Of a stretch of DNA of 46,428 nucleotides, positions 3,001 through 9,000 are shown piece by piece. Origin of the DNA: a virus. Lineage: Duplodnaviria; Heunggongvirae; Uroviricota; Caudoviricetes. Position 1 is the first letter of the stretch. Each line of letters starts with the position of its first letter. The position numbers are program-made. The stretch lies in IMG/VR virus record IMGVR_UViG_2622736468_000002, one strand, 5' to 3'.

Positions 3001-6000
3001 CAATTACCCCTGGGCCATCCATGTACTTTCCGTACTCTTCCGTTAACAACGTGAAGTAATCCCCAGCCGGGAGGTAAATCCTCAACTGAAATAATTTCCG
3101 GCTCACTAATAAAGAATCGCCAGTCGCCCATGCCAAGTGAGGGATTTTTACGGAAACGCTTTTTTCTATCTGCCAACAAGTCAGCACGAGAACACTTCGC
3201 CTCTATCAGGCATGATGCTGAATTTCTGAATCCCATAGCATCTGGCTGTTCTCCGGTACTGGTTACAGCAACAAAGCGGTCATGAAAGCAAACCTTGAAC
3301 CCGTTGCGCTTAAGGAACTTGTACGCAATCTGACAGAGTTCGTGGTGTGTTAACGCCATATCACTCTCCTTTGATGCGAATGCCTGTTGCAATGCTGTTT
3401 ATGATGCTGTCAGTGCATGGGGTAGAAAGCTGGGCATCTCCAGCAATTTTCATGACCTCAACATCTGCATATCGAATACCGAGGTGTATCAGACCGGCTA
3501 TGCCTGACTTAAGCCGAGCATTTTCCATAAATAGAACTTTTGCCCGCTGTTTTTCTGCTTCAAGCTCAACACGCAGCTTCCCTACCGTTAGCGCAATATC
3601 CTCGTTCTCCTGGTCACGGCGTTTGATGTATTGCTGGTTTCTTTCCCGTTCATCCAGCAGTGCTAGCACGGTAGCCGGGTTAGCCTCTGCTATGAATTCA
3701 GCGTTTGCATAAGCCTGAGCATCTGATTCAATCAGGCAGTTAACATGACATTCCGCAATCACGCCACCGGGTTCTCCTTTCCATTTTTGACAAACAAAAA
3801 CTCCTGTTAAATTGCCGTGTTGGTTAACAGATGTATGCCCTACGATGTAGCTTCCTTTAGTTGCTTTCTCTGCCTTTTCACGCAGTACCTGATAGTTAAT
3901 GTTGCTCACTGGTTGCCTCCTTTACGGATCTGCGCTGCGATGCACGAAAAAAAAGACTTTCGCGTATGACTGTTAAGAGCTGGCGCGAACGCCGCGTTAA
4001 GAACGGCGGCATCACAGCCGTCATCGATATAGAGCGCAATTTTTTTCTCCAGGCGTGCTTTGGCTTCCTGCAACTGCATATCCCGGCACGCACGCGGGAT
4101 ATACTCAGCAATTTGAGCGATAGATTTTTCGTTCTGTTTAAACATGCTTCACCTCGATAGGCTTGATGGTATCGATCAGCAGTCGGCGGCGAGTATTTTC
4201 TGCAAAGTGGCGGCGTCCGGTTTCTTTGTGGTAAAACTCGTTTTTTCCGACGACCCACATCCGCTTTGTCTGGTGCAGTTTTTTTACCTGCGGACCGTCT
4301 CGGGTGATAACAATTCCTGTATGAGTTTTTATCACGCTCATTTTTTATTCTTCGGTGCTTTCGGCATTACTGCCCAGTGAGTGATATTGACGTTTTCAAG
4401 GTCCCCGACCTGAAATGTCCACAGCCATTCTCCGGTTTCTTTTTGTCCCCAGGTGTACCAGAGAGAACGCCAGCCAATTAGCCAGCCTTCTCCGTTAGCA
4501 TCAAATAACAGAACACTTTCATTTGCTGGCGGCAGTTCAGCTGACACTGGTATTATTTTGTTTTCCAGTGCCGCACATTTAGCTTCAAGCGCATCGAATT
4601 TACGTACCAGGTACTCAGCATTTGTTTCATTCACTTTCAGATCTCGTGGTACACATTTCCCGCGAAGAAACCCTTCCATTTCGAAAACATTCATGCGCAT
4701 TTGCGTAACTCCGATAACTCGTTAAAACGTTCCATAAACATCCCGTAGGCATGGCCTGGTGACAGTGGAATAACTTTGAACATCTCTGTCGCCGGGATAC
4801 CTTCCAGTACAGGCCAGAAAGAGCCATCATCAAGCCCGAGATCGCGACGTTCGGTTGCCAGCATAATGAGATCGGCATATTTCACTGGCGTGCTCATAAC
4901 AGGAGGGGTGATGCTGCCAACTTACTGATTTAGTGTATGATGGTGTTTTTGAGGTGCTCCAGTGGCTTCTGTTTCTATCAGCTGTCCCTCCTGTTCAGCT
5001 ACTGACGGGGTGGTGCGTAACGGCAAAAGCACCGCCGGACATCAGCGCTATCTCTGCTCTCACTGCCGTAAAACATGGCAACTGCAGTTCACTTACACCG
5101 CTTCTCAACCCGGTACGCACCAGAAAATCATTGATATGGCCATGAATGGCGTTGGATGCCGGGCAACAGCCCGCATTATGGGCGTTGGCCTCAACACGAT
5201 TTTACGTCACTTAAAAAACTCAGGCCGCAGTCGGTAACCTCGCGCATACAGCCGGGCAGTGACGTCATCGTCTGCGCGGAAATGGACGAACAGTGGGGCT
5301 ATGTCGGGGCTAAATCGCGCCAGCGCTGGCTGTTTTACGCGTATGACAGGCTCCGGAAGACGGTTGTTGCGCACGTATTCGGTGAACGCACTATGGCGAC
5401 GCTGGGGTGTCTTATGAGCCTGCTGTCACCCTTTGACGTGGTGATATGGATGACGGATGGCTGGCCGCTGTATGAATCCCGCCTGAAGGGAAAGCTGCAC
5501 GTAATCAGCAAGCGATATACGCAGCGAATTGAGCGACATAATCTGAATCTGAGACAACATCTGGCAAGGCTGGGACGGAAGTCACTGTCGTTCTCAAAAT
5601 CGGTGGAGCTGCATGACAAGGTCATCGGGCATTATCTGAACATAAAACACTATCAATAAGTTGGAGTCATTACCAACAGGAGGTAACCCGTATTTCTCAC
5701 GGATTACGGCGTCTATTTTTTCTTCCATCCGTTTATAGTCAGGAAGAAGGCGTTTCAGTGGAGCTGGGATGTCCTGGCAATACGCTTCTGTTGCATCATG
5801 CATTAACGCTTCAAAAGCAAATTCCTGCGGCACCAGCTGGCTGCAAAGCACCGCATGTTGGGCGACGCTGTAGAAGTGAGAAAGATGACCGGCAAAGCGA
5901 CAGATATTTGAAAGGGAAACCGCGATATCGTTAATAACGATGTCATCTTTATTTATCTTGTCATAATAAAAATGCTTCCCGGAAAAAGTTTTAATAAATG

Positions 6001-9000
6001 ACATTTTGTTCTCCACGTATATGCGCTGCACCGCGCTGAATTTGGGTAAAAGGAAGCCCTCACCATCCGGTGATTATTGAGTTAATTACGTTTCCATAAA
6101 TGCCCCCGCAGGGGCATTTGCAGTAATGAAATCAGGCGGTGAAAGTACCAATAAAGGTTTCTACTTTGCTGTCTTTGAATTTCTCAACAAGCAGATCACG
6201 AAATTCGTTAGCCATATCTTCCTGCACCGCTTCCAGCTGAATAATGCGCAGAACCAGTACAGGGCGATCACCAGTGATAATGCTGAGGCGTAATTTAAAC
6301 GGACGTTCTTTCAGGCCTTCAAACGGAACGCATTTAAACTCAAATGCTACTGGCATAATGTCTTTGGTTTTCGCTTCGACAGACTCCATCAAAGAGCGTT
6401 TGCCGCTGAAGTCATTATCTTCAAAATCAGCGGTCTGGTTTGCTTCAATCGTGATTTTACGGACTGCCGCAGCCGCTTTTGTTGCCTTAATAGCGTCACC
6501 ATTAGCATCAAAGCCCACAAGATAGTCGGCCCAGTCTTCAATCCATTCTGCCAGTGACTTCTGGGAGTTACGCTCGCCGTTAACAGACAACAGAGCAGAG
6601 AACGGTGCTGTCTTTTTCAGTTTGAGTGTGGCGGTGTTATCTGCGTGACCTGGTTCACCAATAGTACCCAGGTTAAGCACACTGACGGCACGCATATTAT
6701 CGGCATCGATAAAGCAGCGGGTGCCTTCATCTGCAAGATCTTTAGAATAACGGGTAAAGTCATCGATGCTGGCAGTGGAAAGCGCACCACGGAAACGGAA
6801 GCGATTTAAATTAAATTTTTCCAGCTCATGAATGCGGAAATTCTCAGGCAATGCCACAGCATCGGCACCAATCTTACTGATAATTTCATTAACACCCTGA
6901 GCAGAAATAAGGGCATGGATTTGATTAATTGCGGTTGCGTCTAAGTTCTGAGACATAATAAGTCCTCACTATATTAAGATATTCAGTGATGAGATAAATA
7001 ATCAGTTAATTAAGAACGATATTAATGACCTGCTGCGCGGAGTTTTCCGTCAGGTTCACCGGCAAGAGTCAGTAATTGTCCCTGGTCTTCCTGCAGAATA
7101 GTCAGGCGACCACCTCGATTGACATACATCGGCGTTTCGGTGGTGTCTTCTTCGGAGATTTTCCCGCGGTTAGTCGGGCGAACATATGAGAGTTTGTGTT
7201 TGATTTTCACACGGTTCTCATCAAACGGTTCGATGTCCAGATTGACCGAGACTTTACCTTTGTTTTTCGTGTTCATCACACCGGAAGCGACTTCACTGAG
7301 AACTGCGCCGAGTTTGGTTTCAAATACGCCGCCGTCCAGTTCTACGATAAATACCTGCACATCAGTACTGCGTACGCTAGCCATTTTGCTGCTCCTCATC
7401 ATACCGACCCTGCAAGGTCGGTTGGTTTCTCCACAAAACAGAGAAGAACACCTGCGGTGACAGCCGCCCGGATGGATTGGGTTATGAGCCCGTCGTCCGG
7501 TGATGCTCTTCTCTGTTTTGTAAAAAGAGCGGTACCAGCCGGAAGCAAGGGTACAAACTGGTACCGCCAAAGCAGTGGCTGTTGTGGTGGGGTTGTCACT
7601 CAGGCGTATGGTCAACCTGACAATCCGGTGTCCTCAACGGGGAAAGAGTAACCCCGCCATACTTACCGCCGCGCCATTTCGCGGATTACCACAACGCTGA
7701 GAGCACTTAGCCAGTTACGGCACCACACTTTGTCGCGGTTCCATAAATGCCCTCATCGTTGCACCCTGGTCTCTTCCCAGGCGTCAAACCGGATCGCCAC
7801 GCTGGTTAGGCGTCTTATCAGCATCATCATTGACTTGCACATTCCGGCTACCTGGTTTGTTTGCCCGAGCAAGGAGTGGATTGTCCCCTTTAACGTCACC
7901 AGACCGCTAACGACGCATGTGCCATACGCCGTGTTACAACCAAATTTTGTTAGTACCTTGTTTGTATGTCTGGAAAGAAAGATAAAATGAAGTTGCGCAT
8001 TATGCAAGTGTTTTTATTGCGAGATATGCAATTTGGTGGGTAATGAAAAGCCACCTTCTGGTGGCTAATTGATGTTGAGGTAGGGGTTAATTGTGTCGCT
8101 TAAGGGTTTGTGACTGACTGATTAAGACCTTTCCAAAGACCATAAACCGATGTTCGTTTTCGCTGGTAATTCCCCATTCGCGGTAAATCTGATTATCAGA
8201 AATTACCAGCAGTTTATCAGGTATCATTTGCAGTCGTTTGACGTAAATTTTATCATCAAAACCAAATACATATATACCATCCCCATCAAACTGATTGATA
8301 CTGATATCAACGAAGATGAGATCTCCTGGCTCAATGGTTGGACACATACTGTCCCCACGAACGTTGATAACTTTAATGTGATTGGCTGGCCGTCCGCCAA
8401 ACATCGATACAGCATTATCAGTTCTGTATTCAATGGCATGAATCACATCAATGACATCACCGCCCTGGATAAGGCCATTTCCCGCACTGGCACTGACATC
8501 CAGCATTTCAATACGGAATACATCCTTCACCTGCGCAACATCCTCACCAATACTGTTTTTACATACAGTATTACTTTTGACGTCTGAGGTAAAGAGATCA
8601 GCGATATCAACACCTAAGCTCCTGGCAATATTACTCAGGGCTTGTTCAGTGAATTGTTTCTGCTTACCTGTTTCCAGGCGTGAGATATTCGCCGCATCCA
8701 CTCCTATTGCTTCAGCGAGATCGGCGATTTTCATGTTCTTCGCCTGGCGAAGTTGTCTGACTCGGTTTCCTATGTTCATGCGTTTATTACATTTCTTTAT
8801 TGCGCGTTAAGCAAATCAACTTGCGCAAAATATTTGCGTGAAATAATATGCTCATCACGCAATATGTGGAGGTTATATGCAATCACCATTACGGAATGTG
8901 CGTAAGGCGCACGAATTTACTTTGCAGCATGTTGCTGCGGGCGTTCAGGTCAATCCAGCGACGCTGAGTCGTATTGAAAGACTGGAACAAATTCCATCTA

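Follow-up and report, generated by a model that had tools for sequence, protein, structure and literature searches.

The yfdR gene of Escherichia coli K-12 (b2361) lies in the CPS-53 (KplE1) prophage at argW, within the gene series yfdP-yfdQ-yfdR-yfdS-yfdT. It encodes an HD-domain protein that has weak nucleotidase affinity and binds domain I of DnaA (PMC4776307). Multicopy suppression of hda-185 needs both YfdR and YfdS; overexpression of yfdQRST inhibits DnaA-dependent replication initiation, and deletion of yfdQRST gives no marked phenotype at 37°C (PMC4776307).

Here we describe a yfdR homologue split by an IS1 element. It lies in a stretch of 46,428 nucleotides, referred to below as the window, which is recorded as DNA of a tailed virus of the Caudoviricetes (IMG/VR record IMGVR_UViG_2622736468_000002). 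A close relative of the inserted element is K-12 IS1A (NC_000913.3, 19796..20563), with which it shares a length of 768 bp, terminal inverted repeats, InsA, the A6C site, the InsAB′ architecture, and a 9-bp target duplication. A staggered cut of 9 bp is typical of IS1.

The yfdP-Q-R-S block of a yecE prophage

The window holds a yfdP-Q-R-S block, which a reading made earlier from the sequence alone (the sequence-only reading) had called an early-left operon. The block is transcribed leftward and lies between a cI-like repressor gene and xis/int. In K-12, too, yfdR is flanked by yfdP, yfdQ, and yfdS in the same order and orientation, and the three flanking products of the window are 93 to 99% identical to their K-12 counterparts:

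7022..7384, minus strand: yfdP homologue, at the head of the block, 120 aa (112/120 identical to K-12 YfdP)
6132..6956, minus strand: yfdQ homologue, upstream of the insertion, 274 aa, DUF2303 (270/274 identical to K-12 YfdQ)
4338..4700, minus strand: yfdS homologue, 120 aa (115/120 identical to K-12 YfdS)

From its ATG, yfdS shares 10 nt with the end of yfdR, which places it directly downstream of the insertion. An ea22-like gene, xis, and int also lie downstream of it. The window differs from the K-12 region in that its yfdR is split by IS1 and in that no yfdT homologue follows yfdS. Moreover, whereas CPS-53 sits at argW, the prophage in the window is lambdoid, resembles Stx phages, and sits at yecE. 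Elsewhere in the same prophage, 2.7 kb of early-right genes have given way to an IS629-type element, which lacks a target duplication.

A complete IS1 element within a 9-bp target duplication

The insertion comprises the following features:

4898..4906, no strand: left copy of the 9-bp target-site duplication, AACAGGAGG, read directly; present only once at the FORC_069 empty site
4907..5674, plus strand: complete IS1, 768 bp, its transposase genes antiparallel to yfdR
4907..4929, plus strand: IS1 left terminal inverted repeat (IRL), GGTGATGCTGCCAACTTACTGAT, matching the reverse complement of the right end at 18 of 23 positions
4962..5237, plus strand: insA, 91 aa, its protein identical to K-12 InsA
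5156..5659, plus strand: insB′ frame, 167 aa, DDE_Tnp_IS1
5213..5219, plus strand: A6C motif AAAAAAC of the programmed −1 frameshift, intact
5652..5674, plus strand: IS1 right terminal inverted repeat (IRR), an imperfect inverted copy of IRL
5675..5683, no strand: right copy of the 9-bp target-site duplication, AACAGGAGG, read directly and by comparison with FORC_069

The 768 bp at 4907..5674, which the sequence-only reading had taken for an IS1, are identical to K-12 IS1A at 758 positions (98.7%), and eight of the 10 substitutions are grouped at IS positions 630 to 714. The closest copies in E. coli, annotated "IS1-like element IS1A family," are 99.6% identical. IS1 elements are bounded by imperfect inverted repeats some 23 bp long, beginning GGTGATGCTGCC / GGTAATGACTCC; here, the 23-mer of the left end occurs once in the window (0 expected from shuffled sequence). 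A −1 shift at the A6C motif opens a 232-aa InsAB′ transposase frame (4962..5659). The product of the insB′ frame differs from K-12 InsB by two amino acid changes, S65R and R85C. Pfam domains were found in the IS1 frames (Zn_ribbon_InsA, 1.3e-21; HTH_Tnp_IS1, 4.7e-31; DDE_Tnp_IS1, 1.4e-77), as was the NCBIfam family transpos_IS1 (143 bits, against a cutoff of 100). With its ends and open reading frames (ORFs) intact, this copy of IS1 looks functional.

The duplication noted in the sequence-only reading is indeed perfect. AACAGGAGG flanks the element on both sides as a direct repeat that cannot be extended in either direction and is thus exactly 9 bp long; a match of 9 of 9 nucleotides at two fixed positions has a chance probability of about 4e-6. 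We then compared the window with the uninterrupted prophage of E. coli FORC_069 by BLAST. Two alignments were returned, covering 1..4906 and 5675..9278 of the window, and they share exactly 9 bp of FORC_069 (8561..8569), where AACAGGAGG is present once. Such a 9-bp overlap in the subject is characteristic of a target-site duplication. On the minus strand, the left copy reads CCT CCT GTT, that is, yfdR codons P108-P109-V110, which places the insertion point at codons 108 to 110.

We rejected the idea that the left end of IS1 forms a new promoter for the downstream yfdR fragment and yfdS. A candidate picked out by eye, TTGGCA-16 nt-TATGAG, points outward from IRL and lacks the conserved final T, and the scan reported no outward promoter at the IS1 left end. 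Across 3800..8900, promoter-like and terminator-like sequences were as numerous as expected from shuffles.

Excision restores an intact yfdR

When 4907..5683 was deleted in silico, the two minus-strand fragments fused in frame without a stop codon:

5675..6004, minus strand: yfdR 5′ fragment, codons 1 to 110, carrying H50 and H69-D70
4691..4897, minus strand: yfdR 3′ fragment, codons M111 to A178 and the stop codon, carrying the conserved D119

The restored ORF runs on the minus strand from the ATG at 6004 to the stop at 4691 and encodes 178 aa. It is identical to the intact yfdR of FORC_069 at 537 of 537 nt, and its product is identical at 175 of 178 residues to K-12 YfdR, the protein studied in PMC4776307; together with the flanking yfdP, yfdQ, and yfdS homologues (93 to 99% identity), this makes it the orthologue of K-12 YfdR. 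The identical intact allele, WP_000008178.1, is named "yfdR: 5′-deoxynucleotidase" by PGAP. The fragments, therefore, neither fall into different frames nor match unrelated proteins, and the single split gene put forward in the sequence-only reading holds up. Two of its details needed correction. The protein is not about 184 aa long but 178 aa from the ATG at 6004, which is the start in all annotated relatives; starting from the upstream GTG at 6031 would give 187 aa. Nor does the upstream fragment extend over 5684..6031: as an open frame it runs from the ATG at 6004 down to 5594, entering IS1 for 26 codons and ending at the stop codon at 5594..5596. If this frame is expressed at all, its product would be a 136-aa fusion of 110 native and 26 IS1-derived residues that ends within the element. 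Upstream of the 3′ fragment there is no Shine-Dalgarno sequence, and the end of IS1 now occupies that position.

The insertion divides the HD residues of YfdR

The HD motif expected in the joined protein is present as H69-D70, accompanied by H50 and D119. All four residues are invariant in 12 homologues of 66 to 98% identity. H69-D70 aligns with H68-D69 of YfbR, and H50, the HD pair, and D119 align with the structure of Atu1052 (2gz4; E = 2e-13). The IS1 element thus parts H50 and H69-D70 from D119, the fourth conserved HD residue.

By profile, the assignment of YfdR to the HD family is marginal. Pfam YfbR-like PF12917 scored 24.3 bits (cutoff, 25.9) and PF13023 (HD_3) 17 bits (cutoff, 22.5), and the NCBIfam YfbR equivalog NF003009 scored 19.9 (cutoff, 122); YfdR is a distant relative of YfbR and not an equivalog. 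The motif, 2gz4, and the literature are the basis of the assignment. An AlphaFold2 model of YfdR is all-helical and of low confidence (mean pLDDT, 63; pTM, 0.56), probably owing to the shallow alignment of 12 sequences. Searched with Foldseek, this low-confidence model gave 2gz4, known by then from the sequence comparison, as its only significant match (E = 1e-5; TM, 0.6), the remaining HD hydrolases lying at E values above 1. With a marginal profile and a mean pLDDT of 63, the functional reading relies mainly on the near-identity to K-12 YfdR. On that footing, the nucleotidase activity and the binding to DnaA domain I have presumably been lost from the split gene.

The insertion is private to one lineage and recent

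The uninterrupted allele WP_000008178.1 is found in yecE prophages of E. coli FORC_069 and of O104:H4 strains, which share the integration site and the integrase with the window. Except for IS1, the FORC_069 prophage has 99.9% DNA identity to positions 1..9278 of the window. It differs in having no IS1, a single AACAGGAGG, and no IS629-associated loss of 2.7 kb, and it is mosaic relative to the window in the late and tail genes (75 to 95% identity).

Searches of 5,426 complete E. coli genomes and 50,697 phage records found no contiguous IS1/yfdR junction. A single public contig, with one difference from the window in 16,004 bases, encodes the fusion protein, while the intact 178-aa protein is encoded on at least 1,000 public contigs. 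The sequence-only reading had thought the insertion recent. We agree, since the split gene has no substitutions relative to intact alleles and the junction is absent elsewhere: the insertion is real, recent, and private to one strain lineage.

In a search for junctions, an IS1 end lay within about 650 bp of the flank in eight E. coli genomes, some of them clonal. Of these, we inspected four (JB2, E4, CE0007a, and UPEC_U013). Like the window, they carry IS1 in the early-left block of prophages with yfdR, and the copy in JB2 also has a perfect 9-bp duplication, CTCCACGTT. However, in all four the element lies in the yfdR start codon region, at the 5′ end of the gene, or in the yfdQ-yfdR spacer; these sites differ from codons 108 to 110 and so represent separate events. 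A rough estimate, based on about 4,000 loci, one orientation, and 5-Mb genomes with a median of 11 IS1 copies each, gives about three such genomes by chance. Eight is only a fewfold excess, and we rejected the idea of an IS1 hot spot in yfdR.

Origin and consequences of the insertion

One simple transposition event, in which IS1 entered the yfdR coding sequence of the prophage, likely as a neutral step of decay, is very probably the correct explanation, and nothing contradicts the insertion itself. The transposase made a staggered 9-bp cut at AACAGGAGG (yfdR codons 108 to 110), and repair then duplicated the 9 bp on either side of the 768-bp element. As a result, yfdR is split into a part for residues 1 to 110, within the 136-aa fusion, and a part for residues 111 to 178, which is left without a ribosome-binding site. 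The conserved residues suggest that the HD metal site (H50, H69-D70, and D119) would be shared out between the two pieces, and for that reason no active YfdR would be expected. From the polarity of IS1 and the 10-nt overlap, expression of the translationally coupled yfdS is probably lowered, and the same polarity may also lower the remainder of the leftward early operon toward xis and int. Loss of YfdR enzyme function and polarity on yfdS, xis, and int are predicted effects. Antiterminated transcription from pL could pass through IS1, as in the classical result with lambda N, and such read-through would make the polarity weaker. Assuming neutrality, the insertion is most likely a step in the decay of a repressed, IS629-damaged prophage in a host of an IS-rich E. 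coli type.

Could the insertion instead have been selected, because it removed or silenced a YfdR/YfdS module or because polarity on xis and int locked the prophage in the chromosome? We consider this unlikely, and quite unlikely too in its fullest form, in which IS1 destroyed YfdR, silenced YfdS by polarity (the DnaA-directed inhibition of replication by the yfdQRST module depends on both products), and perhaps lowered read-through into xis/int, leaving the prophage detoxified and immobilized. Such selection would fit with DnaA domain I binding by YfdR and with inhibition of initiation by overexpressed yfdQRST (PMC4776307), as well as with the location of yfdS (whose first 10 nt lie within yfdR), the ea22-like gene, xis, and int downstream of the insertion. 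Against this, a lysogen should not express the operon, which is located behind a cI-type repressor; strains deleted for yfdQRST show no marked phenotype at 37°C (PMC4776307); and the prophage had been disabled beforehand by the IS629-associated deletion. The independent IS1 insertions at the yfdR 5′ end or in the yfdQ-yfdR spacer of several other E. coli genomes would, if selection had operated, reflect one common pressure. Yet eight genomes among about 4,000 loci are within a fewfold of the three or so expected by chance, those insertions are at the AT-rich 5′ end, a known preference of IS1, and the allele described here occurs in a single lineage compared with at least 1,000 contigs for the intact one.

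An artefact of assembly or sequencing, with a repeated IS1 misplaced onto a chromosome whose yfdR is really intact, is very unlikely. Multicopy repeats such as IS1, which occupies a median of 11 places per E. coli genome, are classic sites of misassembly, and the sole public record to carry the allele has a wrong taxonomic label, suggesting imperfect curation. But a misjoin would not yield an exact 9-bp target duplication at both IS ends, both junctions are colinear with unique sequence, and the public 3.5-Mb contig that shares this region has the matching structure with one base different from the window. It is least likely by far that the ORFs on either side are two distinct genes, alike only by chance to the halves of an HD hydrolase, with IS1 lying between them and interrupting nothing. 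Each fragment has its own ATG (6004 and 4897), and the gene caller predicted products on both sides; however, the ATG at 4897 is merely codon M111, the upstream frame, lacking its own stop, continues into IS1, and the joined sequence is base for base one 537-bp gene annotated in thousands of genomes. The comparison with FORC_069, in which the 537 nt form a single intact yfdR, refutes this idea.

We therefore return to a simple insertion of IS1. As an event it is of a type already known, a textbook case of insertional inactivation and an ordinary knockout; it adds nothing new on the mechanism of IS1 or the function of YfdR and is of little importance except for getting the annotation right. Instead of separate hypothetical proteins, the annotation should show a single IS1-interrupted yfdR pseudogene that takes in both fragments and the 136-aa chimeric ORF. 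The IS1::yfdR allele is also a handy lineage marker for the source strain. Together with the IS629-associated deletion, the IS1 insertion marks the yecE prophage as one undergoing erosion by IS activity.

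An IS1 element splits yfdR

Direct reading of 4500..6300, with a script check, placed two copies of AACAGGAGG exactly 768 bp apart, so the coordinates proposed for IS1 and its duplication in the sequence-only reading were exact. Neither side of the direct repeat can be lengthened by even one base, which fixes its length at 9 bp. The 768-bp stretch starts with GGTGATGCTGCCAACTTACTGAT and ends with an imperfect inverted copy, GGTAATGACTCCAACTTATTGAT (18/23 match); the window contains a single occurrence of the IS1 left-end 23-mer, and 100 shuffles contained none. The features of this region are as follows.

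4898..4906, left copy of the 9-bp duplication AACAGGAGG
4962..5237, plus strand, insA ORF, 91 aa, with InsA zinc-ribbon and HTH_Tnp_IS1 domains
5156..5659, plus strand, insB' frame, 167 aa, overlapping the insA ORF; DDE_Tnp_IS1, E=1.4e-77
5213..5219, frameshift motif AAAAAAC; a −1 shift opens a 232-aa InsAB' frame
5675..5683, right copy of AACAGGAGG

The NCBIfam model transpos_IS1 scored 143 bits (cut-off, 100), and judged by its sequence, the element has every structural feature that defines IS1. It differs from IS1A of K-12 by 10 substitutions in 768 bp, with InsA identical and InsB differing at two residues (S65R and R85C). Among complete E. coli genomes, the nearest copies share 99.6% identity with it and bear the annotation "IS1-like element IS1A family."

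Deleting 4907..5683 in silico fused the minus-strand fragments in frame, as had been anticipated. The restored ORF encodes 178 aa from an ATG at 6004 preceded by GGAG, which corrects the protein of about 184 aa and the start at 6031 first proposed. Of 5,426 complete E. coli genomes queried with the reconstructed 1,842-bp empty site (yfdS, yfdR, yfdQ), 3,025 contained a match. The best (99.9%) came from FORC_069 and O104:H4 strains; their annotation there reads yfdQ, "yfdR: 5'-deoxynucleotidase," and YfdS-family protein. E. coli FORC_069 carries the same prophage in the same place, its integrase gene adjoining the DUF72 gene yecE, followed by yecN, cmoA, and cmoB. BLAST of the window against this locus gave two alignments, 1..4906 and 5675..9278 (99.9% identity), whose overlap on the subject consists of just the nine bases AACAGGAGG, present there in a single copy. 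This uninterrupted allele and the restored yfdR are identical at 537/537 nt. The restored protein matches K-12 YfdR at 175/178 aa, and its neighbors match the proteins of the cryptic prophage CPS-53 at 112/120 (YfdP), 270/274 (YfdQ), and 115/120 (YfdS) residues.

Consequences for YfdR and downstream genes

The duplicated 9 bp encode P108-P109-V110. The yfdR 5' piece (codons 1 to 110) lacks its own stop; its frame continues for 26 codons inside the IS1 right end and forms a 136-aa chimeric ORF. The 3' piece begins at M111 with the IS1 end in front of it, and no Shine-Dalgarno sequence was found ahead of it on reading 4500..6300. In an alignment of 12 homologues (66 to 98% identity), H50, H69, D70, and D119 are invariant. 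H69-D70, the HD motif already noticed in the sequence, corresponds in alignment to H68-D69 of YfbR, a characterised dCMP phosphohydrolase. Over its whole length, the protein can be aligned with Atu1052, an HD-domain structure (2gz4, E=2e-13), including the QH, the HD, and the Asp at 119. Since the insertion falls at codons 108 to 110, before D119, it cuts the fourth conserved residue off from the first three, and the split would be expected to abolish YfdR function.

The functional label comes chiefly from the 98% identity to K-12 YfdR, because the protein scored narrowly below the cut-off of the curated YfbR-like profile (PF12917, 24.3 versus 25.9 bits) and below that of the YfbR equivalog profile (19.9 versus 122 bits), and confidence in the AlphaFold model was low (pLDDT 63), with a fold search from it recovering only 2gz4. 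K-12 YfdR is an HD-domain protein with a nucleotide affinity much below that of YfbR; it binds DnaA domain I, YfdR and YfdS are both needed for multicopy suppression of hda-185, and deletion of the cluster had no marked effect at 37°C (PMC4776307).

The minus strand carries, in order, int, xis, ..., ea22-like, two small ORFs, yfdS, yfdR, yfdQ, yfdP, and the gene for a cI-type repressor (XRE/S24 peptidase); a cro-like gene is divergent from them. This order fits the label "early-left operon." The yfdS start (4700) and the yfdR end (4691) overlap by 10 nt, which suggests that the two genes are translationally coupled. IS1 insertions are classically polar in either orientation through Rho-dependent termination. 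Given the overlap and this polarity, YfdS, and perhaps genes up to xis/int, would likely be expressed at reduced levels when the prophage is induced, unless antiterminated transcription from pL passes through the element. In a consensus scan, promoters and terminators showed no excess over shuffles, and the IS1 left end had no outward promoter. The integrase gene (436 aa, minus strand, 1..1311) ends exactly at the window start.

Rarity and origin of the insertion

As one contiguous match, the left junction was found in none of the complete E. coli genomes; eight matches with at least 80% coverage were two-piece, with IS1 elsewhere near yfdR. Nor did any of 50,697 phage records contain the junction. 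A single recorded contig, CABEEG010000004.1 (GCA_901482365.1), encodes exactly the 136-aa fusion product; over the 16,004 bases it shares with the window, the two differ only at 6825. Records of the intact 178-aa protein cover at least 1000 contigs. Relative to FORC_069, the split gene has no substitutions and the 8.5-kb flanks have only 6 differences, and these comparisons indicate that the insertion is recent, as had been suspected, and lineage-private.

On that contig (2818292-2838702; window 1..16004), the integrase gene also abuts yecE, a known integration site of lambdoid/Stx phages. The record, whose fusion protein is VTQ34094.1, is labeled "Streptococcus pneumoniae." Since the 3.5-Mb contig bears E. 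coli-type genes (yecE, yecN, cmoA, cmoB, torZ-like) and this lambdoid prophage, the assembly appears to be taxonomically mislabelled. At 6825, in yfdQ, the window has C where both the contig and FORC_069 have A; the window thus derives from the same lineage but from a slightly different isolate or assembly.

An assembly artefact is very unlikely, because a mis-join makes no perfect target duplication and the sole public contig sharing the region has the same structure with one base different. The idea that two separate genes flank IS1 is refuted by the BLAST identity of the restored yfdR to one intact gene. Selection for inactivation, whether to lose a DnaA-inhibiting module or to lock in the prophage, could be read from independent IS1 copies at the yfdR 5' end or in the yfdQ-yfdR spacer of E. 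coli JB2, E4, CE0007a, and UPEC_U013; the JB2 copy (1986..2753 of the JB2 locus) is flanked by a separate 9-bp duplication, CTCCACGTT, which lies 15 bp before the yfdR start codon. IS1 also lies inside yfdQ in ZJ3920 and APEC E16002/E18006. However, the count is only few-fold above a rough chance estimate, and the copies at the yfdR 5' end and in the spacer lie in an AT-rich stretch (GC 0.37 to 0.42 at 5800..6100), the kind of sequence that IS1 favours. Selection against the YfdR/YfdS module has no positive support and is the one speculative extension, which we consider improbable.

A mosaic, decaying prophage

Identity to the yecE prophage of FORC_069 and O104:H4 strains is 99.8 to 99.9% over the left 23 kb, and the late genes are mosaic. 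Further features are as follows.

9279..10588, IS629-type element (IS3 family), 1,310 bp, with 26-nt terminal inverted repeats
9333..9659, its orfA, 108 aa
9656..10546, its orfB, 296 aa
16721..16970, three tRNA genes (CAT, Arg-TCG, Arg-TCT)
17459..19420, SASA/NanS-type esterase gene, 653 aa, only 489 bp after the tRNA genes

Where FORC_069 has 2.8 kb holding three minus-strand genes, one for a nucleoid-associated protein, the window has a 1.1-kb segment (14317..15450) following the DUF968 gene. In the mosaic 23098..46096, identity is 95% for head genes and only 75 to 78% for tail genes. Downstream of Q, Stx-converting phages have this arrangement of tRNA genes followed by such an esterase gene. 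The 489 bp leave no room for stxAB; the prophage is Stx-phage-like but stx-less, as is its FORC_069/O104:H4 relative.

The IS629-type element stands in place of 2,721 bp of FORC_069 that hold the ymfL 3' part, genes for a Rha regulator, a small hypothetical protein, and an HTH protein, and the yfdN 5' part. It has no 3-bp target duplication, its flanking triplets differing (tgc/ggg); insertion with adjacent deletion and without target duplication is documented for IS3-family elements (PMC11708052). This event looks like an IS-associated deletion, and it probably cripples the prophage, which is decaying aside from the IS1 event. The evidence supports the yfdR split as a textbook case, known in kind, of IS1 insertional inactivation of a known prophage gene.
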